A DNA stretch of 54,751 bases from a virus. Lineage: Duplodnaviria; Heunggongvirae; Uroviricota; Caudoviricetes. The stretch is from the IMG/VR virus record IMGVR_UViG_2579779067_000001. One strand, given 5' to 3'. The position numbers and the translations under genes are program-made. Below are positions 13,174 to 45,645 of this stretch, in pieces. Numbering within the stretch: the stretch's first letter is position 1; every line of letters starts with the position of its first letter. The notes under the pieces are model-generated. The model was not told the DNA's origin. It did not search any database and saw nothing but the letters and a program-made list of their open reading frames with translations.

Positions 13174-13524
13174 TTGATGCGTGATATGTATGAAGTATTG
13201 GACCGCTGGGGAGCATGGGCTGCAGCAGAAAATAGTGGTGTGGACTGGCAGCCGATAGCGGCTGGTTTCAAGGGACTTTTACCACACGGTAAAAAGTCAC
13301 GTCTCCAGTGTGATGATGATGAAGGCATCATGATAGATAGTTGTGTGGCTAGGTTGCGTAAATATAAGCCGGAAGAGTATGAGCTGATAATTGCTCACTT
13401 TGTTATCGGTATCTCATTACGCACTATTGCGAAGAAGAGAAAATGCTCTGATGGGACTATAAGAAAAAAGTTGCAAGCTGCATTGGGATTTATTGATGCA
13501 GTTATATATATAATACATGGGTAA
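13174..13524 (+). CDS. antitermination protein Q (QuuD-like small Q)
   Basis: 116 aa; strong resemblance to DLP12 QuuD (LERWGAWAA...IAAGFKGL...RLQCDDD); position just before lysis module. Confidence 0.75.
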   Translation: MMRDMYEVLDRWGAWAAAENSGVDWQPIAAGFKGLLPHGKKSRLQCDDDEGIMIDSCVARLRKYKPEEYELIIAHFVIGISLRTIAKKRKCSDGTIRKKLQAALGFIDAVIYIIHG

Positions 13525-13531
13525 TTTATTA

Positions 13532-13550
13532 GACGGCCATATTGGCCGTC
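13532..13550. terminator. bidirectional hairpin between convergent Q and moron genes
   Basis: perfect inverted repeat GACGGCCA-TAT-TGGCCGTC in AT-rich context. Confidence 0.5.
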
Positions 13551-14736
13551 AGCTAAATAAATATGTAATAGCATAAGGCGTAAGTAAAAAGTAGAATCTA
13601 AATGTAAGATATAAGCCACATAAAACTATAATTCCTAATGAGGCAAAAACAACTTTCTGAACAAGCAATCTTGTGGTTAAACTATCAAATGTATCCTTTA
13701 TATCTTCGTAAATAGCCTTGAAGTTATATTCTGCTTGTTGTTTTTTATGATTTAACTCATCATTTATTGCTGTTAAAGTTTGCCATTGATTAAATAGAAC
13801 AAATAGAATCATAATAGTGAAGAACAATGCACCCAACACTACAGCTGTGTTTATTAATGCTTGACTATCCCAACCATTAGCCTGCTTCATTTGAGTCGCA
13901 ACGATAATTGTTGCGACGGGGATACCTAATATCTGATTTTGTATGTCACTGAATACTTTATGTATTTTCCCCATCTCTTCTATTTTGGCTACTCGTAACT
14001 GATCCAGTATTTTCTCGTAAGAAAAACCAGAAACGAATACTTTGTATCCTTTTTGATAACTTTCATAAAGTTGTCCTAAATCCCTTAACATGAAGGAAAA
14101 AGAGGTTTCTTTAGTTTTAGATTCACATGATGATTTTATACTACTTGCTAAAATAGTAAGTTTTTGATCTTTATGCGTATCTTCTGCAAAGTTTGCGATC
14201 AAATTATGAATCAGATCTCCATTAACATTCATAAGATCATCGCTAGAATAATTTACTGGAATTTTTAGTACGTTGGATTCGACGAATACCAATTCAAAAT
14301 TTGTTTCATCTAAATAAGCAGAACAATCTTTGAATAAAGTAATTAAGCTCAAAACATCTCTGTACTTGGATATAATAGCAGGCGACTTTTTATCCCTGTT
14401 GTGATAATTAAGTTCGATTATAAAGAAGTTACTGGCTTCCTTTATCCTATTTTTAGGATTTTTTAAATACTCATTAAAAGAGAAATGTAGCTGCCCCAAT
14501 CGTAATTTGGGGGGGGTTATATGTAAGGTTATAGTTTGGCCTAACTCAATGTTGCCAGATTCAAGGGTGATGCCAAAATCATGGGGATTCTCTGTGATAT
14601 CGTTGATGATGTCACAGAGCTCCTCGTTTGAAAGAATGAGTGATGCTTCAGATAGGGTACCTGCAAATGTAGCGGCCTTGTAAATAGTCACTAAGTCTTT
14701 GAAGGTTCTCTGATTGTTACTGCTCATCCTCTTCAC
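13549..14736 (-). CDS. membrane protein of unknown function (soluble N-terminal domain + 2-3 C-terminal TM helices)
   Basis: 395-aa ORF; AT-rich; hydrophobic segments ALINTAVVLGALFFTIMILFVLF and VVFASLGIIVLCGLYLTFRFYFLL; 20-nt overlap with upstream gene. Confidence 0.7.
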   Translation of the reverse strand: MKRMSSNNQRTFKDLVTIYKAATFAGTLSEASLILSNEELCDIINDITENPHDFGITLESGNIELGQTITLHITPPKLRLGQLHFSFNEYLKNPKNRIKEASNFFIIELNYHNRDKKSPAIISKYRDVLSLITLFKDCSAYLDETNFELVFVESNVLKIPVNYSSDDLMNVNGDLIHNLIANFAEDTHKDQKLTILASSIKSSCESKTKETSFSFMLRDLGQLYESYQKGYKVFVSGFSYEKILDQLRVAKIEEMGKIHKVFSDIQNQILGIPVATIIVATQMKQANGWDSQALINTAVVLGALFFTIMILFVLFNQWQTLTAINDELNHKKQQAEYNFKAIYEDIKDTFDSLTTRLLVQKVVFASLGIIVLCGLYLTFRFYFLLTPYAITYLFS

Positions 14737-15751
14737 CTAATTCTGATAAGATCTCTGATCTTAGCGTATCCGGAATCTCGGTAAGTATCAATTTATCGTT
14801 TTCTGAATCATAAAGAACGCTGCCATCATGCAAGGCCGCACGCTCGAATTTCAGAGACCAATGTTTGGACTTTCCTTTGAAACTAACAAGCCCACGTATA
14901 ACGTTGCCATCAGGCACGAACCCATCAGAGAACTCCAGATCGTCATTGGTTAACTTTTCAACTAACAACTCAGGAGCAGTTGGCCATATCTCGTTTGCAA
15001 AAATTTGAGTGTCGAAAGTTTCACCAGAACGATTTAAATTTTTTAATTTTTCATGAGCCTTATTTAGGAACTCTTCACGTGCCTCTGGTTCAAAACCTCT
15101 TTCAGTAGCAAATTCTAAAAGTGCATTCCGTAATTTTGTTGTTTCTTGTTTGGCAATTAGAATATCGTTGCAACCTAAAAACTTTTTGAAATAACCTGCT
15201 ACTGAATTTTGCCCCTTTAGAAAGCTAATATATCTCTCTTTGCCATTCTGGCGCCCAGTTAAGTCAATTCGTCCCGCTACTCGAAGTTTAGCAATGTCTA
15301 GATATTCACTTTCTTGAATTTCAAAATCGTGGACTGAAGAGCCAACTGCTGATGTTAGGATTGCAACCATCAAATAATGATTTCCATTTACCTCATTATG
15401 GGCAATTATTACATAACCACCAGTAGACATTGATTCATCATCGGCTCTGGCTTTTAAATGATTGATCATTCGGATACTAGTATCATAAAAACTATGTGTT
15501 TTATTTACGAAATAATCATCAACGATATTACCCATAGGGTAACTATCGCGGTCATCTTCAAATTTCCCATATCCTTTACCTGCTCTCCCAGAGTACCTTT
15601 CAGTAAGTGCGTTAGAGAGGTCTTTTGATGCTTGCTGAACAGGTTTTTCTGAAGGACAAGGAATAATGGTGGCTAACCCCTGTTGTTCCTTGTTCATAAT
15701 GTGAACAATAAACTTATGAGTGATATTAGTGGGGGTCGCTGATGCAGTCAT
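14717..15751 (-). CDS. YejK/NdpA-family nucleoid-associated protein homolog
   Basis: 344 aa; by-eye alignment to E. coli YejK (GGYVIIAHNEVNGNHYLMVAILTS vs [30 protein letters not shown]...ERYISFLKG vs RIDLTE...TRYLTFLKG); AGGA SD before ATG. Confidence 0.75.
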   Translation of the reverse strand: MTASATPTNITHKFIVHIMNKEQQGLATIIPCPSEKPVQQASKDLSNALTERYSGRAGKGYGKFEDDRDSYPMGNIVDDYFVNKTHSFYDTSIRMINHLKARADDESMSTGGYVIIAHNEVNGNHYLMVAILTSAVGSSVHDFEIQESEYLDIAKLRVAGRIDLTGRQNGKERYISFLKGQNSVAGYFKKFLGCNDILIAKQETTKLRNALLEFATERGFEPEAREEFLNKAHEKLKNLNRSGETFDTQIFANEIWPTAPELLVEKLTNDDLEFSDGFVPDGNVIRGLVSFKGKSKHWSLKFERAALHDGSVLYDSENDKLILTEIPDTLRSEILSELGEEDEQ

Positions 15752-15867
15752 AACAACATCCTTTTAATGGTTTTGAACAATTGGTGTTGATAATACTTCA
15801 AAAAATACTAATGCGTACGCAAAAAATACAGTACTCTGTTAAGAGTGGTTACTTCGCCACACAGCTT

Positions 15868-15897
15868 AAACCCGCCGTCGAGCGGGTTTTGTCGTTT
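15868..15897 (+). terminator. tR'-like rho-independent terminator upstream of holin (Q target region)
   Basis: AACCCGC-CGTCGA-GCGGGTTTT hairpin plus T-run, about 150 nt upstream of holin. Confidence 0.5.
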
Positions 15898-16041
15898 CTG
15901 GGCTTTGGTATTCGTTGGGCTTGGTCTATCTAGCTCTTATCCATTGGCTCGGCTTCTTTTACGTTTCCGCTTCTGATTTGCGGTTCGTGGTACTCCCTCA
16001 ATTTGCACCTCTTGTATCGGCGAGGTGAGAGATAACTACAA

Positions 16042-16368
16042 ATGCCTCATAACCCAAATACTTGGCTGGAGTTGGTCCAGAGCTGGTGGCGTGGAGACAC
16101 ACCGCTGGGCGCAGTGATTATGTCGATTGTTATGGCTGGTTTGCGCATTGCCTATTTTGGCGGTGGTGGTGGCTGGAAGCGAAAAACACTCGAAATTCTA
16201 CTCTGTGGCGCTCTGACGCTGACTTTTGCATCCGCTCTTGAGTATGTCGGATGGCCTAAATCGCTTTCTGTTGCCATTGGTGGTGGGGTGGGGCTGATCG
16301 GTGTCGATGCTATTCGTGGGGCTGCAATGAGAGTAATCGGTAATAAGTTTGGTGGCTCTAAGGAGTAA
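16042..16368 (+). CDS. holin (lambda S-like)
   Basis: 108 aa; hydrophobic helices and charged C-terminus; precedes endolysin. Confidence 0.8.
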   Translation: MPHNPNTWLELVQSWWRGDTPLGAVIMSIVMAGLRIAYFGGGGGWKRKTLEILLCGALTLTFASALEYVGWPKSLSVAIGGGVGLIGVDAIRGAAMRVIGNKFGGSKE

Positions 16369-17282: not shown

Positions 17283-17532
17283 TAGCGATAATTTTACTCA
17301 TCATCCTTCACATCTGGCTCTGTAGACAGGGTGGTGCTTACTTCTGGAGCGAATCCAGATTAAACATCTCATTGCTGATGCTTGATATTGAGCATCTGGC
17401 GCGCGGTAAGGGCTGTGTTGAGATAAGTGCCAGTTCATTACAAAGCTATATCTAATGGAGCCTGAAATAATTTGTCATTGTCATGACAAGAAAATTCATT
17501 AATGATGAGCTCTCATTATACGGGAGGTAGAT

Positions 17533-17781
17533 ATGGCATTTCGTTATTTTGAACTTACCGAAAATATTCCTTTTGAGGATGCAAGAGAGCTTCACGTACA
17601 GTTCAAACACCACTTAGAATATGTTGTAAAGGCGTTATTTATGCCAGGAACACATGAAAAGCATTTAATTGTTGAAGGCCGGGATGACGAATCGATAACA
17701 CAGATATTTGGTGGGCATGATGAAAAGTTTATGCATCTTTATCATATCGATGAATATGAAAAACGTGAAGACTTAATCTAA
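17533..17781 (+). CDS. hypothetical small acidic protein
   Basis: 82-aa ORF with GGGAGG SD; AT-rich; between lysis and packaging modules. Confidence 0.4.
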   Translation: MAFRYFELTENIPFEDARELHVQFKHHLEYVVKALFMPGTHEKHLIVEGRDDESITQIFGGHDEKFMHLYHIDEYEKREDLI

Positions 17782-17896
17782 CCTCCTACGACTGTTTTTA
17801 TTGCCATCATAAAAGCCATTCCTTGCAGAGTGGCTTTGATAATGGATATCCCAACAAGCGGATAAGACAATAAATATACCCACCAGGGGATAAACA

Positions 17897-18142
17897 ATGT
17901 CTAAAATCACGGTTACACCTGCATAGCAGATCCGCTTAAACCTGCTGGCGAAACTGAACTATGACACCGCCGCTGCAGCAGACGCGATTAAGTTTGTTGG
18001 TGAGGATCCGTTGAAGTATCAAATCTTTGTGAACCAGTTAAGCTGGGTAACATCTGAAAGCGGGCTGGTAGCCAGAACGACGAAAGCTATCAAAGAGTCG
18101 GAAGACACACTACTGTGGTTTGAAGCTGAATCTGGTTCATAA
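17897..18142 (+). pseudogene. hypothetical gene interrupted by in-frame TAG at codon 10 (17924-17926)
   Basis: ATG with AGGGGA SD; MSKITVTPA*QIRLNLLAKLNYDTAAAADAIKFVGEDPLKYQIFVNQLSWV...; frame open to TAA at 18140. Confidence 0.45.
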
Positions 18143-18190
18143 GTGAATGAATGTGGTAATTTAATCCTCCGCAAAAAAAAGGGGATAAAA

Positions 18191-18412
18191 ATGCCAAAGA
18201 ATGTCATAGCTATTTTACCGGGTGACGCGTTTGATCATGTTGTTGTCCAGGACGACCTGGAGATTGTTACCTTCAGGGGTGACAAGGGCGGCGTGCTTAC
18301 TATGCCTATCGAGGAGTACGAACTAGACGGGATAAGTTATAACGTCGCACGTTGTGACGGTATGGTCACTGACGAAAAAGTTGAGAAGGCTATCAGACAC
18401 TTCACCAAGTAA
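18191..18412 (+). CDS. hypothetical small protein
   Basis: internal ATG of track ORF 18143..18412 with AAGGGG SD; followed by terminator. Confidence 0.4.
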   Translation: MPKNVIAILPGDAFDHVVVQDDLEIVTFRGDKGGVLTMPIEEYELDGISYNVARCDGMVTDEKVEKAIRHFTK

Positions 18413-18430
18413 TAATCAGCTTCCGAACCA

Positions 18431-18453
18431 AGCCTCGCAATAGCGAGGCTTTT
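18431..18453 (+). terminator. rho-independent terminator
   Basis: GCCTCGC-AATA-GCGAGGC hairpin followed by TTTTT. Confidence 0.65.
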
Positions 18454-18466
18454 TAACGACAGAGGT

Positions 18467-18661
18467 ATGACAGTGGTTCTTACAGCTAAGCAGTTTGAAG
18501 ACCTTGCATCCTTCGCGAAGGAAGATAGCCAGCCTCAATACACCATCGCAACCGGAATAATCCTAGAATTCGAAGATGATTGTGAGTTTATCCCCGTTTA
18601 TGCCGGGCTCATCGCTTATTTAGAGTTACTGAATCACGGTGTATTGCAACTCGACCACTAG
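18467..18661 (+). CDS. hypothetical small protein
   Basis: 64-aa ORF with AGAGG SD. Confidence 0.35.
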   Translation: MTVVLTAKQFEDLASFAKEDSQPQYTIATGIILEFEDDCEFIPVYAGLIAYLELLNHGVLQLDH

Positions 18662-18735
18662 CGACATTACGCCAAGTATTCATCAAGTGCCTAGTTTAAT
18701 GTTAAATTATTCCCTCATTCATAAAAGGGAATGTT

Positions 18736-19137
18736 ATGAAAATAGATCACGAGTATTTGAAAGGTCTTTTGGAAGCTTTCGAGGCGTCTGAAGAGCCGCA
18801 TACTGATATAAAGCAGCTGCAGCTGGCTGGGTATGACTACAGCACCGATGAATTTTTATTCCATATGCGTTTATTGGCTGATCGTCAACTAATTGCTAGA
18901 ACAGACGGCAAGTATGGGTTTGGTTTCTCTGAGGCTGCTGATGGAGGATCATGGTTCGTTATACCGTTACGATTAACTTCAAGCGGTCATGACTTCCTTG
19001 AAGCTCTCAGGAATAAAGAGGTTTGGAATTCTCTCAAGACCGGCTTTAAAGATGCAAGCATTGGAACATTAGTTGACGTTTCAAGGCGTTTGCTGGATGG
19101 TTATATTCAGAAAAAAATTGACGACTTAATTGGCTAA
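18736..19137 (+). CDS. hypothetical phage protein (DUF2513-like, tentative)
   Basis: 133-aa ORF; own terminator downstream. Confidence 0.45.
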   Translation: MKIDHEYLKGLLEAFEASEEPHTDIKQLQLAGYDYSTDEFLFHMRLLADRQLIARTDGKYGFGFSEAADGGSWFVIPLRLTSSGHDFLEALRNKEVWNSLKTGFKDASIGTLVDVSRRLLDGYIQKKIDDLIG

Positions 19138-19155
19138 TATTTTATATAACCATCA

Positions 19156-19179
19156 GCCCCGCAATCGCGGGGCTTTTTT
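19156..19179 (+). terminator. rho-independent terminator
   Basis: GCCCCGC-AAT-CGCGGGGC hairpin followed by TTTTTT. Confidence 0.65.
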
Positions 19180-19271
19180 ATTGCCATTATGATGGCAGAT
19201 ACATTGCTATGGCGTAACAGGATTTCAACTATGAACCCAACAGAAGCAGCTACATCACCGAAGGACGGATA

Positions 19272-38727: not shown

Positions 38728-39795
38728 TTAATGAAATTTATCTCGGATGAATTGTTGCGATGGTTTTTCAATAAATATATATGACATATAGCTAATTGCC
38801 ATTAATGTAAGCATGAATAAAATGAATACCTTGGGGCTGTAAAAAAGATCGCGTCCATAGCCAATCTTGTCAGCTAAATAAACAACAATGATTTGCAAAG
38901 GAAAATGTAAAAGATAAGATGAATAACTGATATCGCCCAACCATTCAATTTTTTTTCCAAAATCGTTTCGTATTGCGCTAATTGATACAAGGAAAAAGAT
39001 TATGGAGGTAAATCCGAATAAGATAATTGAGAATATATCTGCTACTTGCAGGGTAAAGATAACTCCCCATGAGATCAATAGAAAAACACAAGCAAAAATA
39101 AAAAATAACTTTGCGCTAATATTTTTTATGGCCGCAATCGTAATTTTATAAGTCAGACCACCAATAAAGAAAGAGAATGCGCCGATCATTATGGGATTGT
39201 TAATTTTGAAAAAGTAGTACGACAATGCAACTATTAAAATTGATATGAATGTTGTTTTTGATGTGAACTTGCATAATATAAAAAATATCATGTACATAAG
39301 TACTTCAATCGACACGGACCATGTCGGGGCGTTGAAGGACCAACCTCGCTCAAATCCCCATGATTGAATCATCAATAAATTCAGAATGGCATGGTAAATG
39401 TCATTCATAGGATAAACAAAAAAATAATTATGACTTTTAAAGAAAATAATTTGTAATATTGCCACGGCAGCAAATGTAAATATATAAAGTGGATATAATC
39501 TACTGACACGGTTAACTATAAAAGTTTTTGCTGAGGTTTTATTGCTGTGTATATTGTCAGCGTATAGATAAAAAAATATGAATCCAGAAATCATAAAAAA
39601 CAATTCGACAGCATATAAACCGTAATGATAAAAGACGGAAAAAAATTCATAAAAAGGTTGGCGGTTTATGATTATGTCAGATGCAGCATTCTTTTTCATA
39701 AAAAAATGTTGCCAATGCCATAACACAACGGAAAGTGCGGCAAATCCTCTCAGAACATCCAGGGTATATATTCTCTTCCCAAAAACATTCGTCAC
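38728..39795 (-). CDS. acyltransferase family 3 membrane protein (O-antigen/LPS O-acetyltransferase-like)
   Basis: 355 aa; multi-TM; N-terminal LDVLRGFAALSVVLWHWQHFF signature; AT-rich; at prophage right end. Confidence 0.8.
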   Translation of the reverse strand: MTNVFGKRIYTLDVLRGFAALSVVLWHWQHFFMKKNAASDIIINRQPFYEFFSVFYHYGLYAVELFFMISGFIFFYLYADNIHSNKTSAKTFIVNRVSRLYPLYIFTFAAVAILQIIFFKSHNYFFVYPMNDIYHAILNLLMIQSWGFERGWSFNAPTWSVSIEVLMYMIFFILCKFTSKTTFISILIVALSYYFFKINNPIMIGAFSFFIGGLTYKITIAAIKNISAKLFFIFACVFLLISWGVIFTLQVADIFSIILFGFTSIIFFLVSISAIRNDFGKKIEWLGDISYSSYLLHFPLQIIVVYLADKIGYGRDLFYSPKVFILFMLTLMAISYMSYIFIEKPSQQFIRDKFH

Positions 39796-40345: not shown

Positions 40346-41215
<870 letters not shown>

Positions 41216-41757
41216 CTAACCCTTTGAATTTACATAGCGCAAAAAGATACCTTTCCTCATAATGTGAGCTAATTTTATGTTTCGTTTGATGATCGGATCG
41301 GTCTCGAAACCCGTAGCCACGTCGTATGCAAGAACGTGCTACGACTGGCTGGTGAACTTCCGATAGTGCGAGTATTGAATGATTTCCAACTGTTATCGAT
41401 TTTGCGTATTTTTTGCATGAGAGGATTTTTACCTCCTCCCACCGATCCTCCATGGCTTTACGCCAGTGTCTCTGGTCTGCTATGTGCCAGGAGCGGACGC
41501 TAACCTGATTGACGGGAAATCATATTAAGTCTGCATAAAAAATTAGAATATCTTTAGTTACTATTACTAATGTGTGTATAACTTATGCCTAATTTATCGC
41601 TCCGGCTGAGGGAATCTTGCCTCCGCTGTCACTTTTAGGCATGATAACGACTATTTTTACAGTGGTTCCGAGTTATACTATCTAACAGATTACTTGAACC
41701 GAGTCCGTTTATCAGTATGGCGTTTTATATGCTCAGAGTTCATCCAAGGAGTGACTT

Positions 41758-42234
41758 TTGAAATTTGAACGAATCTATAAAAATATTACTGGCCTTAGCT
41801 GTCCCATATTCGGGATTCAGTGGAACGCGCCAATAATAGAAGCTGACGAAGCAAAGAAGATCGTCATTTTTCTTGAGGACAAGCGCGTTCTTTTCAATCC
41901 TGTCGACATGGAGGGGGCTAGTCATTGCACTTCGAGTGTTATCAACATTAGATCTGAATTGACTAAAGTCCTACAAGGTTTGCCGAGCGATTCACATTTA
42001 GCGAAACAATTAAGGAAAATGAGAAAAGCATGCCAAGAATTCTGTGACAGCGTTGGCTCCCCTAACTTTATCCAACTTGATCATCCTGTTCAAATATCCA
42101 TACTTGAGCGAGCCCTTTTTAAACTGCGACAAAAGTGTGGTAACTCTCTGGCAGAAATAGCGGTTACCTATGGTCTTGATGTTGATGACGGATTAGCCAT
42201 TATTATCCCTTTTAATAATCCCAGTAACATATAG
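41758..42234 (+). CDS. hypothetical protein
   Basis: 158-aa ORF; TTG start preceded by AAGGAG SD; AT-rich cargo block. Confidence 0.45.
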   Translation: MKFERIYKNITGLSCPIFGIQWNAPIIEADEAKKIVIFLEDKRVLFNPVDMEGASHCTSSVINIRSELTKVLQGLPSDSHLAKQLRKMRKACQEFCDSVGSPNFIQLDHPVQISILERALFKLRQKCGNSLAEIAVTYGLDVDDGLAIIIPFNNPSNI

Positions 42235-42482
42235 CAATGACTATGAATTTGCTTGCTTGATTAATTATCATGCAATCGATAGTTTTGGGGCGGAAGCGGT
42301 TAGCAAATTAGTCATTAGTGAGTCGTTATGTCCGTTCATCGCTCATAACAGACATAAACTTCAGTTATGGCATAAAGGTATGCATGCTGGGTGGGGAAAG
42401 TATGAAGGAAAAGAAGACTGCTGCGCCGTTTGTCGTCACGTTTATCTTCATTGGCTATGCAAGTCGTAATACAAGGTGGGAC

Positions 42483-42525
42483 AAAACTGAGACACATAAG
42501 GCCTCGCAATGGCTTGCAAGGCTTT
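42483..42525. repeat. right copy of 43-bp imperfect direct repeat
   Basis: AAAACTGAGACACATAAGGCCTCGCAATGGCTTGCAAGGCTTT. Confidence 0.7.
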
Positions 42526-42601
42526 ACATGTTTTGATGTGGTGGGACGTGTGAGCGCAGTATTGATGGGGTAATGCTTTGAATTAGAAGCGGATTCTTAT
42601 A

Positions 42602-42647
42602 ATTCGTAATGCGAAGGTCGTAGGTTCGACTCCTATTATCGGCACCA
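42602..42647 (+). repeat. attR: 46-bp direct repeat of thrW 3' end
   Basis: identical to 1399-1444. Confidence 0.85.
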
Positions 42648-42811
42648 TCTCCACTTCTTCAAACATCCGTATTAATCCATAATCATACTGTTTTATAAAA
42701 GATTTTTTGTTCTTTTTGTCCATGTTAGTCCATAACCTTCCAGTGGAATCCAGTACTAAATGTGTATAGGATTATGTATATGTTCCTGTTCGATTATGGA
42801 ATTCTATACAC

Positions 42812-43978
42812 ATGCCCCTAAATGATATGCAGATTCGCCGTGCTAAACCTGAAGCTAAAGCCTATACACTTGGGGATGGGCAAGGGTTGTCTTTACTTGT
42901 AGAGCCAAATGGAAGTAAAAGTTGGCGATTTCGTTACCGCTATGCAGGTAAGCCTAAAATGATCTCGCTTGGTGTCTATCCAACGATCACACTTGCTGAA
43001 GCTCGTTCTCGCCGTGATGAGGCACGAAAAATAGTGGCCGAGGGAAAAAATCCTAGTGAGGTTCGAAAAGAACAAAAACTAGCATTAAGAATTCAATCTG
43101 AGAACGCATTCGAAAAGATTGCCAGAGAGTGGCATCAGATGAAATCGGCAAAATGGTCTGCTGGGTATGCCTCAGATATTATTGAAGCGTTCCAGAATGA
43201 TATTTTTCCGTATGTGGGGGCGAGGCCTGTAGGGGAAATTAAACCGCTAGAATTGCTAAATGTACTGCGTAAAATTGAGAAGCGTGGTGCATTGGAGAAA
43301 ATGCGCAAAGTGCGGCAACGTTGCTCAGAGGTTTTTCGATATGCCATTGCTACTGGAAGAGCAGAGTTTAATCCTGCGGCAGATCTGTCCAGTGCCCTTG
43401 AAGTTCATAAATCAAATCATTTTCCTTTCTTAAAATCAGATGAGATACCTGATTTTCTGCGTGCTTTAGATAGTTATACAGGAAGCCGACTTGTTCAGAT
43501 TGCCACAAAATTATTAATGGTTACGGGGGTTAGAACTATCGAGTTACGAGCAGCATTATGGCAAGAGTTTGATCTAGATAACGCTATTTGGGAAATTCCT
43601 GCTGAGAGAATGAAAATGCGTAGGCCGCACCTTGTCCCCTTATCGACGCAGGCGCTAGGCTTTCTTAATGAACTCAAATCTATGACAGGAAATTATCGTT
43701 ATGTTTTTCCTGGACGGAATGATCCAAATAAACCTATGAGTGAGGCAAGTGTTAATCAACTTATCAAACGAATAGGCTATGCTGGAAAACTTACAGGACA
43801 TGGGTTTAGGCATACATTATCAACAATTCTTCATGAAAATGGCTTTAATACCGCTTGGATTGAAATGCAACTTGCTCATGTAGATAAAAACTCTATAAGA
43901 GGAACATATAATCACGCCCAATATTTTGAAAAGCGAAAGGTGATGATGCAATGGTATTCAGATAATATTTTTAGTTAA
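42812..43978 (+). CDS. int: P4-type tyrosine integrase
   Basis: 388 aa; N-terminal GLSLLVEPNGSKSWRFRYRYAGK arm-binding pattern; C-terminal HGFRHT catalytic region. Confidence 0.9.
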   Translation: MPLNDMQIRRAKPEAKAYTLGDGQGLSLLVEPNGSKSWRFRYRYAGKPKMISLGVYPTITLAEARSRRDEARKIVAEGKNPSEVRKEQKLALRIQSENAFEKIAREWHQMKSAKWSAGYASDIIEAFQNDIFPYVGARPVGEIKPLELLNVLRKIEKRGALEKMRKVRQRCSEVFRYAIATGRAEFNPAADLSSALEVHKSNHFPFLKSDEIPDFLRALDSYTGSRLVQIATKLLMVTGVRTIELRAALWQEFDLDNAIWEIPAERMKMRRPHLVPLSTQALGFLNELKSMTGNYRYVFPGRNDPNKPMSEASVNQLIKRIGYAGKLTGHGFRHTLSTILHENGFNTAWIEMQLAHVDKNSIRGTYNHAQYFEKRKVMMQWYSDNIFS

Positions 43979-44024
43979 TATAATTGTTTTTTAGTTTTAG
44001 TATTTATTTTTTTATAAAAAAGAG

Positions 44025-44040
44025 AAGGGGCTAGCCCCTT
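44025..44040. terminator. bidirectional hairpin between convergent int and hotspot gene
   Basis: AAGGGGCTAGCCCCTT palindrome. Confidence 0.55.
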
Positions 44041-44049
44041 CGAAAATTA

Positions 44050-45645
44050 CTAATTATTGTCATCGTGAAATAAGTTTATGAAGACAATGTCATCCCTTTT
44101 CATATATTTATCTGCTATTGATTTTGTTTTTGTTATTAATTTTTTTGTGATATCTTCATTGTGATAACAATACATTATGTCTTCTAATTTTATACTGGGG
44201 TTAGACAGGTGATATTCATTTTTAGAGTAAACTCCTTTTCCGTTAATGGTGATTATAACAAGCACTATAAAATCACCTAGTTTAGTGGCGATAACTGCTA
44301 AACAACATGCATTTATTTCACTTGGAGGTGATTTTATTTTATTCTTAGATGTCAGTTTCATTGCTGGGGAATAATTTGGGTTACTTAGTAATTGCCCAAT
44401 TATGTTAGTATTATCACTATGTATACCCAATTTTGTAATAGTTGTCTTAACTTGCCCCTGAATACTTAATCGGTCAGATATAATAATAGCATTCTCTGTT
44501 GTATTTAATGCCTGAATACAGCTTTCAATTAATGAGGTGTCTTGTATTAGTTCTTTATTGGCATTTGTTATTAAAGTCATTGGGTTATGACTGTTAGAAA
44601 TATTTATTTCAAATTCCAGCATGTCCTTCTGTTCATAAATCCATCGCATGATGGTTAAATTATCTTTGATCTCAAATAGATTCAATATGTTGTCATATGA
44701 ATCAAATCGATATGTAAGGAGTCCTGTTTTAAGATAAATTAAAATGTCGAAATAAGAGGATTTTAATCTTGCTTTGATATGCTTATCTGGAGCATTGATG
44801 GATAGTGGACTAACATATAATTTACATTCGAGGCGAATGGTTTTTTTTGATGTCATGTTTGTTATTTTCAATATGGCATCTGTTTCAAAATTTTCAACCC
44901 CAAACGATAAATCGGCTTCAGAAAAACTCTTGTTCTCAAGAGGCATAGAGATATTAAATCGTTCGTCAAAGCACTTTATATTTCTAACTTTCGCTTTATT
45001 AACCCATCCAAGAGACGCATTGATCAGATTATCGTATTCAACTTCCGCTTTTGTCTGAAAAGTTAATTTATATCCTCCATTTTCATAACCTAAATTTTTT
45101 AAGTGATTTATTTTCTTTTCAGTATAAACTTCCATACCTTCATTTACGTATGATTCAATTGTAGACTTTAAATGTTCACCTGTTATTGCGTCTAATTTAT
45201 GGGTGCTGTCAAATGATACTGTAATGTTAATTTTGTTCAGTTTTTTGGGTTCTTTTAAAATAGAGTTTTCTCTGGCTCTTTGTAATGTTTTAAACATTAG
45301 ATTTTTATCAAAGTGTCTAACATAAACTGCTTGTGGAGTATTGCTTTTATTATACTCAATGAAAAAAAAGAAAGCGGGGAGCTTACTTCCGCATAAACGC
45401 ATCATATTTGATAAAGTAATTTGTACTTTTTTTGAAGTACCATCAGTTGCTTTGACTTGAATTTTACACTCGATAGGGGATGCACTTTTATCTATCATTG
45501 GGTGAGTTGAAAATTGTGTAGGGAAGTCAACAATGAAATCCCATCCAGCACTGTCTTTTAATGATGGGTTGTATATTAACCCAACAGATGCGCAAAGTTG
45601 CATAAATAATGCTTCGCCCATGCTTCCTAGATCCCGTTCTTGCAC
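44050..45645 (-). CDS. P4-hotspot protein of unknown function (possible N-terminal PD-(D/E)xK-like nuclease motif)
   Basis: 531 aa; very AT-rich; GTG start with AAGGTG SD; N-terminal GEALF...GWDFIVDF...ECKIQVK. Confidence 0.7.
   Translation of the reverse strand: MQERDLGSMGEALFMQLCASVGLIYNPSLKDSAGWDFIVDFPTQFSTHPMIDKSASPIECKIQVKATDGTSKKVQITLSNMMRLCGSKLPAFFFFIEYNKSNTPQAVYVRHFDKNLMFKTLQRARENSILKEPKKLNKINITVSFDSTHKLDAITGEHLKSTIESYVNEGMEVYTEKKINHLKNLGYENGGYKLTFQTKAEVEYDNLINASLGWVNKAKVRNIKCFDERFNISMPLENKSFSEADLSFGVENFETDAILKITNMTSKKTIRLECKLYVSPLSINAPDKHIKARLKSSYFDILIYLKTGLLTYRFDSYDNILNLFEIKDNLTIMRWIYEQKDMLEFEINISNSHNPMTLITNANKELIQDTSLIESCIQALNTTENAIIISDRLSIQGQVKTTITKLGIHSDNTNIIGQLLSNPNYSPAMKLTSKNKIKSPPSEINACCLAVIATKLGDFIVLVIITINGKGVYSKNEYHLSNPSIKLEDIMYCYHNEDITKKLITKTKSIADKYMKRDDIVFINLFHDDNN

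Follow-up and report, generated by a model that had tools for sequence, protein, structure and literature searches.

Which function do two antisense genes serve in the gap between the antiterminator gene Q and the lysis genes of a lambdoid E. coli prophage? This question is raised by the virus record IMGVR_UViG_2579779067_000001 of IMG/VR (Caudoviricetes), a stretch of 54,751 nucleotides (nt) whose whole length is referred to here as the window. Its minus strand carries two overlapping genes at 13549-15751, which we call the cassette. The first is predicted to encode a nucleoid-associated protein of 344 amino acids (aa) of the NA37/YejK family, and the second a membrane protein of 392 aa, referred to as the partner. 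Our analysis suggests that the cassette is probably a prophage-borne two-gene anti-phage system, which would act by abortive infection in the manner of DS-1 and type II PANGU, with a nucleoid-associated sensor and a membrane effector. This reading is carried by the family of the first protein, the homology of the partner to DS-1B over nearly its full length, the strict coupling of the two genes, and their mobile, cargo-like genomic context.

Two coupled genes and their relatives

The cassette contains the following features.

14717-15751, minus strand: upstream gene, 344-aa NA37/YejK-family nucleoid-associated protein, WP_000127202.1 (PF04245, NCBIfam, phrog_3767)
13549-14727, minus strand: downstream gene, 392-aa membrane partner, WP_000097747.1 (phrog_5023, DS1_2_antiphage)
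14717-14727, minus strand: overlap of the two genes, 11 nt, ATGAGCAGTAA (read from the sequence; RefSeq coordinates concur)

The two minus-strand open reading frames (ORFs) reported in an earlier note on this DNA, 14717-15751 (344 aa) and 13549-14736 (395 aa from the first start), are both present. The earliest possible start of the downstream ORF is a GTG (13549-14736, minus strand, 395 aa). The ATG at 14727 is preceded by AGGTG, and both RefSeq (WP_000097747.1) and the metagenome gene calls give the partner a length of 392 aa, so that the true start is almost certainly this ATG. With this start, the overlap is 11 nt rather than 20 nt and the product has 392 rather than 395 residues; the claim that the genes overlap and are coupled is retained, and the two lengths are corrected. 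As read from the sequence, the 11-nt overlap implies that the two genes would be translationally coupled. The 344-aa gene has its own Shine-Dalgarno sequence, AAGGA, 8 nt before its ATG.

The 344-aa protein matches the Pfam family NA37 (PF04245) over residues 15-330 with an E value of 8e-69 and the solved YejK structure PDB 9be2 with an E value of 1.7e-19, which bears out the resemblance to YejK/NdpA first seen by eye. It also matches phrog_3767. From these matches it is read as a full-length member of the NA37/YejK family. It is not YejK proper, because its score against the NCBIfam YejK equivalog NF001557, 164.8 bits, is below the cutoff of 341. The NA37 domain begins at residue 15, and the first 40 residues contain a single Cys.

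Both proteins are related to DS-1 (D390, DefensePredictor, Science 2026, PMC13092281), which consists of WP_000355468.1, an NA37 protein with a zinc ribbon, followed by WP_000150292.1, a protein of 404 aa with a hydrophobic C-terminus. DS-1 cloned with its native promoter into MG1655 protects E. coli, and the result was replicated; the -log efficiency of plating was 7.6 for Bas1, 2.7 for Bas26, 1.7 for both Bas3 and T3, and 1.0 for T5 (PMC13092281, Table S7). NCBIfam holds paired models of the two proteins, DS1_1_antiphage (NF053868, 'nucleoid-associated anti-phage protein') and DS1_2_antiphage (NF053869, 'anti-phage protein'). The 344-aa protein scores 56.2 bits against the former (E 3e-15; equivalog cutoff 330), and the 392-aa protein scores 70.3 bits against the latter (E 1.6e-19; equivalog cutoff 315). 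BLASTP gave 25% identity to DS-1A over 197 aa (E 3e-10) and 28% identity to DS-1B over 104 aa (E 4e-7). An hhalign comparison of the partner and DS-1B families aligned 346 columns, the N-domain and all that follows up to and including the first membrane segment, with 98.9% probability and an E value of 3e-17. These alignments indicate that the cassette and DS-1 are sister families of one superfamily with a shared architecture. The cassette proteins themselves, WP_000097747.1 and WP_000127202.1, are listed as 'Predicted novel defense gene' with log-odds of 11.97 and 9.14 in Table S10 of the DefensePredictor study, and they were not among its cloned units (PMC13092281). The earlier view, in which the pairing matched no named defence system, is therefore given up: the DS1_1 and DS1_2 models are matched, the partner is homologous to DS-1B, and the exact proteins are in the DefensePredictor list.

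Systems of a similar build, named PANGU, were defined in a preprint of 6 April 2026 (bioRxiv 10.64898/2026.04.06.716658). Type II PANGU pairs a YejK-like protein, Pag2A, with the membrane effector Pag2B, whose N-terminal docking ('DMK') domain is acidic and whose C-terminal part is transmembrane (TM), and the clusters were drawn from operons near known defence genes (10.64898/2026.04.06.716658). The E. coli type II operon, PANGU-Ecu, lowers T4 plating by 3-4 logs; both genes are needed, neither is toxic alone, and the phenotype is abortive-infection-like at a multiplicity of infection of 10 (10.64898/2026.04.06.716658). The same study reports that NA37 proteins bind DNA non-specifically, that Pag2A-GFP departs from the nucleoid upon T4 infection, that T4 escapers carry mutations in denA (EndoII), and that Pag2A binds the N-domain with a dissociation constant of 19 nM (10.64898/2026.04.06.716658).

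The partner matches phrog_5023 (E 4e-80) and has no family in Pfam or PADLOC 2.0; a Pfam scan at E <= 0.1 gave only a sub-threshold match to YbhQ. Its AlphaFold2 model, built with 86 homologs, has a predicted local distance difference test score of 80; residues 1-205 form an alpha/beta domain in it, and very long helices come next. Solved structures yielded no structural relative of the alpha/beta domain. The net charge of this domain is -7 and its isoelectric point (pI) is 5.4, with a median pI of 5.0 across the family. The parts of the partner are listed below.

14113-14727, minus strand: N-terminal alpha/beta domain, aa 1-205, acidic, presumed docking surface for the NA37 protein
13888-13932, minus strand: most conserved stretch, aa 266-280, ILGIPVATIIVATQM, short and hydrophobic (conservation over 86 homologs)
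13792-13860, minus strand: membrane segment 1, aa 290-312, followed by the invariant N313-Q314 (Kyte-Doolittle 19-aa windows up to 2.7)
13582-13653, minus strand: membrane segment 2, aa 359-382 (Kyte-Doolittle windows up to 2.3)

The two strong segments and the shorter stretch at 266-280 agree with the soluble N-terminal domain and 2-3 C-terminal TM helices described before. In the 86 homologs, L267, G268, P270, T278, and Q279 are invariant, and residues 266-280 are also the best-conserved block in the alignment with DS-1B; this stretch may be a half-membrane or re-entrant helix. N293, G299, N313, and Q314 are invariant in the region of segment 1, and F361, G371, and Y379 are near-invariant in segment 2. 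Polar residues that do not vary, N293, N313-Q314, E324, and Q357, fall within the membrane helices or next to them. We presume that the partner is the effector, the counterpart of DS-1B and Pag2B, and that the 344-aa protein is the DNA-bound sensor, the counterpart of DS-1A and Pag2A. A CorA/Mrs2-type channel was also considered for the partner and rejected, as neither a match to the fold of a cytosolic domain with two TM helices nor a GMN motif after the first TM helix was found.

The coupling of the two genes extends well beyond the window. In 22 of 25 species-representative loci with a partner homolog, an NA37 gene is located directly upstream on the same strand, the pair being adjacent and in the same order. 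The junctions of these 22 loci range from -59 to +14 nt, and the loci come from Gamma-, Beta-, and Alphaproteobacteria. In the other three loci the partner homolog itself is a poor match, half-length in two and weak (E 2e-7) in one. The distance matrices of the two proteins are correlated (r = 0.90, Mantel 0/2000). The partner family comprises 369 clusters at 90% identity, compared with 69 for the DS-1 family, and the whole superfamily comprises 1,165 representatives at 50% identity (E <= 1e-3). The locus was found in 16 of 5,426 complete E. coli genomes, and the family is rare among sequenced phages and plasmids, with 6 records in each collection. The neighbouring genes include integrases, repressors, Mu genes, insertion sequences (IS), conjugation genes, and DNA methylases, with occasional Zorya or type III restriction genes.

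We also note that Cupriavidus, Acinetobacter, and Pseudomonas have copies of the C-terminal membrane half of the partner alone (approximately residues 213-371). No NA37 gene is adjacent to the chromosomal half-copies of Cupriavidus, the sole neighbourhoods inspected. The idea of a separable effector module, based on these partner-only copies, was dropped, since in Cupriavidus the copy is located beside metabolic genes and resembles a truncated remnant.

The gap between Q and the late region

The cassette is located between two flanks, with the following features around it.

13174-13524, plus strand: antiterminator Q, left flank (PF06530, E 1e-44)
13532-13550, unstranded: GC-rich hairpin GACGGCC-ATATT-GGCCGTC separating the stop codon of Q from that of the partner gene (folding energy with flanks, -15 to -18 kcal/mol)
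15752-15801, minus strand: cassette-specific upstream region with ribosome-binding site (right breakpoint of the variable region at 15802/15831)
15802-16041, plus strand: conserved post-Q late-region module, preceding the holin (terminator scan; shared by prophages)

The holin gene (PF05106) begins at 16042. The module at 15802-16041 is matched by 2,530 E. coli records and is common to thousands of E. coli prophages, and the terminator scan found a single terminator-like site in it, at 15868-15889. In phage PhiR5_1, which has no cargo, the module follows the stop codon of Q directly. The slot was surveyed in E. coli prophages with a junction query, in which Q was joined to the region upstream of the holin. 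Many prophages have the same DUF968-Q and holin flanks and different antisense AT-rich cargo inside, including the following.

Q-to-late-module gap, antisense: TIR-domain protein
Q-to-late-module gap, antisense: DUF6650 protein, also predicted defensive by DefensePredictor
Q-to-late-module gap, antisense: two-gene hypothetical pair
Q-to-late-module gap, antisense: SfII_49/50 in Shigella phage SfII

The right flank of every alternative cassette is the module at 15802-16041, and each has its own GC hairpin next to Q, at the same place. Depending on the prophages compared, the variable region extends from 13278 or 13494 to 15802/15831, and the 3' part of Q is sometimes swapped along with the cargo. 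The NA37/partner family is itself present in the same slot of Klebsiella phage Kp4865-4. In related prophages, AT-rich antisense cassettes are thus exchanged for one another in the gap that separates Q from the late module (13279-15801). The GC content of 13400-15800 is 0.30-0.43 and that of the flanks is 0.50-0.58, confirming that the block is AT-rich relative to the flanking phage genes; the mean is 0.356 for the cassette and 0.495 for the entire window. A chromosomal prophage of E. coli strain MEI7BO1-21 contains the 2.6-kb segment 13400-16000 with 100% identity.

The earlier note placed the cassette antisense between Q and the late terminator and holin, in the slot where lambdoid phages carry stx. 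Its placement is correct: the cassette lies between Q and the module containing the terminator-like site 15868-15889 and is therefore upstream of the late terminator. The comparison with stx is inexact, because the cassette precedes the late promoter/terminator module and the stx position is downstream of the terminator. The hairpin at 13532-13550 is present and marks the end of the cassette; it has a U-tract on neither strand and was not called by the terminator scan.

The block at 15802-15867, just before the terminator-like hairpin, is kept across all cassette types (GCGTACGCAAAAA, TGTTAAGAGTGGTTACTTCGCCACACAGCTTAAACCC). It may contain the late promoter and a Q-binding site, or a divergent promoter shared by the cargo. 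The consensus scan showed a promoter on neither strand of this block and no clear late promoter, and a by-eye comparison of the conserved upstream block in six cassettes did not settle which strand it serves.

Other parts of the window contain further observations. A tRNA-Thr (CGT) at 1369-1444 adjoins a tyrosine integrase at 1459-2622 and is likely the prophage attachment site. Between the lysis genes and the terminase, 17300-19200 has a GC content of 0.37-0.46, still low but less AT-rich than the cassette, and contains several small ORFs without a family, the exception being a DUF2513 protein at 18736-19137; more accessory genes may be located here. At the right end of the prophage, 38728-39795 (minus strand, GC content 0.32) encodes an Acyl_transf_3 protein (E 2e-24), which resembles the O-antigen acetyltransferases of serotype-converting Shigella phages. 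A second small AT-rich island is located beyond the prophage, at 40346-45645, and may be a defence islet. Its features are as follows.

40346-41170, minus strand: LEM-3-like GIY-YIG protein
41758-42234, plus strand: DUF6650 fragment
42812-43978, plus strand: P4-type integrase
44050-45645, minus strand: 531-aa ORF, unmatched in Pfam and NCBIfam, GC content 0.30

Proposed mechanism and rival explanations

We propose that the cassette would act as follows. In a lysogen, the 344-aa NA37 protein would rest non-specifically on chromosomal DNA. When an infecting lytic phage degrades the host chromosome, the 344-aa protein would be released and could then bind the acidic cytoplasmic N-domain of the 392-aa protein. 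The helical membrane part of the 392-aa protein would enter a toxic state, most likely as an ion-conducting or membrane-disrupting oligomer. Growth would stop before the invader finishes its cycle, as in abortive infection, and sibling lysogens would be protected. Defence, the need for both genes, release from the nucleoid on T4 infection, and nanomolar binding of the N-domain come from related or similarly built systems; by analogy, we infer that the cassette family would behave in the same way, and the action of the membrane part is proposed on similar grounds. Because the host chromosome is not degraded by lambdoid phages, a prophage might carry a sensor of this kind and not set it off during its own induction.

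Several points weigh against this reading. The likeness to DS-1 is remote, with 25-28% identity over part of the length and 15% at the profile level, and the scores against both DS1 models are far below their cutoffs. DS-1A contains an N-terminal zinc ribbon (CxxC...CxxC; MDITCLECG...CDKCG) that is absent from the 344-aa protein. Defence has been shown experimentally for DS-1, whereas for the cassette family it is predicted only. The cassette has the layout of type II PANGU, a comparison drawn on architecture, and how Pag2B acts 'remains to be determined' (10.64898/2026.04.06.716658). The acidity of the N-domain is only moderate. Known defence genes were found in only a minority of the neighbourhoods retrieved, and a sigma-70 consensus scan of the minus strand of 15752-15801 found no promoter for the cassette.

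Other functions can be considered for the same genes. The cassette could be lysogen-benefit cargo that excludes superinfecting phages without abortive infection, with a membrane protein that blocks DNA entry or alters the envelope and an NA37 protein that silences incoming or resident DNA. This idea would fit an accessory prophage cassette whose genes run opposite to those of the phage and include one for a membrane protein, and would also fit the non-specific DNA binding of NA37 proteins (10.64898/2026.04.06.716658); the DS-1 work did not address the mode of protection. We nevertheless consider it rather unlikely: the similarly built type II PANGU behaves as abortive infection and needs both genes, nothing in the data suggests a block of receptor or injection, and two proteins that are encoded in a tightly coupled operon and evolve together point to a physical partnership rather than to two independent activities. 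A toxin-antitoxin-like module for addiction or stabilisation, in which the membrane protein is the toxin, the NA37 protein neutralises it, and protection from phages is a side effect, appears very unlikely. An overlapping two-gene operon on many kinds of mobile elements, and polar residues within the hydrophobic helices of the membrane protein, would suit such a module. However, the type II PANGU genes are singly non-toxic and are both needed for defence, the upstream gene encodes a large (344 aa) DNA-binding architectural protein unlike typical antitoxins, and truncated partner-only copies occur without obvious harm.

It is also conceivable, at a very low probability, that the cassette serves the phage's own life cycle, with an NA37 protein that compacts or regulates phage or host DNA and a membrane protein that tunes the timing of lysis. 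The cassette adjoins the lysis genes and the late regulator Q, and both proteins belong to PHROGs phage families. The antisense orientation, the foreign composition, and the presence in 16 of 5,426 complete E. coli genomes speak against this role, as do the unrelated cargo (TIR, DUF6650) that sister prophages hold in the slot and the occurrence of the pair in non-lambdoid contexts (Mu-like, IS, conjugative, plasmid). A two-gene anti-phage system acting by abortive infection accounts better than any of these three explanations for the coupling, for the exchangeable slot, and for the phenotypes that have been published.

A broader reading built on the anti-phage function is held tentatively, and we regard it as possible rather than probable. 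The cassette family would then be a distinct branch of nucleoid-sensor/membrane-effector systems, larger and more widespread than DS-1, in which an N-domain of new fold captures the released NA37 protein and helices lined with polar residues (N293, N313-Q314, E324, and Q357) form a membrane pore. In SfII-like and lambdoid prophages, the gap between Q and the late promoter would be a site dedicated to the exchange of antisense defence cassettes (the NA37 pair, TIR, DUF6650, and others), each of which brings its own terminator hairpin.

Counted in clusters at 90% identity, the cassette family is approximately five times the size of the DS-1 family, and it is missed by Pfam, PADLOC 2.0, and the NCBIfam cutoffs. 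Annotation pipelines therefore label the pair as 'nucleoid-associated protein + hypothetical protein', and many loci that are now overlooked would be recovered with a dedicated profile. For the effector step of nucleoid-sensor/membrane-effector systems, the high-confidence N-domain model and the short set of invariant membrane residues provide direct targets for mutagenesis. If the pore reading is true, it would supply the missing effector mechanism of type II PANGU-like systems. In addition, the swapping of antisense AT-rich cassettes between Q and the late module suggests a simple way of mining lambdoid prophages for defence genes.

Comparison with known systems

The chromosomal YejK/NdpA shares the NA37 fold family with the 344-aa protein. 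Unlike it, the 344-aa protein is located on a mobile cassette and is always paired with the membrane partner.

RexAB of lambda is a prophage two-gene system in which a cytoplasmic sensor of DNA events and a membrane effector lead to abortive infection. The sensor/effector logic of RexAB, which the earlier note had compared with the cassette, is supported by the protection conferred by DS-1 and by type II PANGU, which is abortive and needs both genes; a kinship with RexAB is not, as no sequence relation was found. Homology to RexAB was examined and rejected, since the Pfam scan at E <= 0.1 returned NA37 only for the 344-aa protein and the sub-threshold YbhQ for the partner. The location also differs: rexAB is in the immunity region beside cI, whereas the cassette is between Q and the late module.

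Type I PANGU (Pag1A and the GRel toxSAS Pag1B) has a sensor of the same kind, YejK-like and freed from the degraded nucleoid, and its sensor binds an acidic docking domain of the effector, the same principle as in type II. In place of a membrane protein it has a soluble alarmone synthetase as its effector, and the partner shows no toxSAS domain.

The cassette was also compared with type II PANGU. The 344-aa protein is YejK-like (PF04245, E 8e-69; 9be2, E 1.7e-19), as is the type II sensor, and the two genes of the cassette are bicistronic and less than 40 bp apart, with an 11-nt overlap and an arrangement conserved in 22 loci. Compared by description only, the partner has the layout of the type II effector, with an acidic N-domain (net -7, pI 5.4) and 2-3 membrane segments. 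Like the cassette, type II PANGU is present in E. coli, and PANGU is spread across phyla by horizontal transfer. The type II operons are near known defence genes, and the cassette copy is in a prophage cargo slot.

DS-1 and the cassette are both two-gene operons. In each, the NA37 gene comes first and is followed by a gene for a protein of approximately 400 aa that combines an alpha/beta N-domain with long helices and hydrophobic segments at its C-terminus. The two systems are present in E. coli, and neither was in the defence catalogues before 2025. They are separate families with approximately 15% identity at the profile level, and the cassette family is the larger and more widely spread (369 versus 69 clusters at 90% identity). 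The kind of system that combines a nucleoid protein with a membrane effector was thus already described in 2025-26, and the cassette is a new, presently unannotated predicted member of it.

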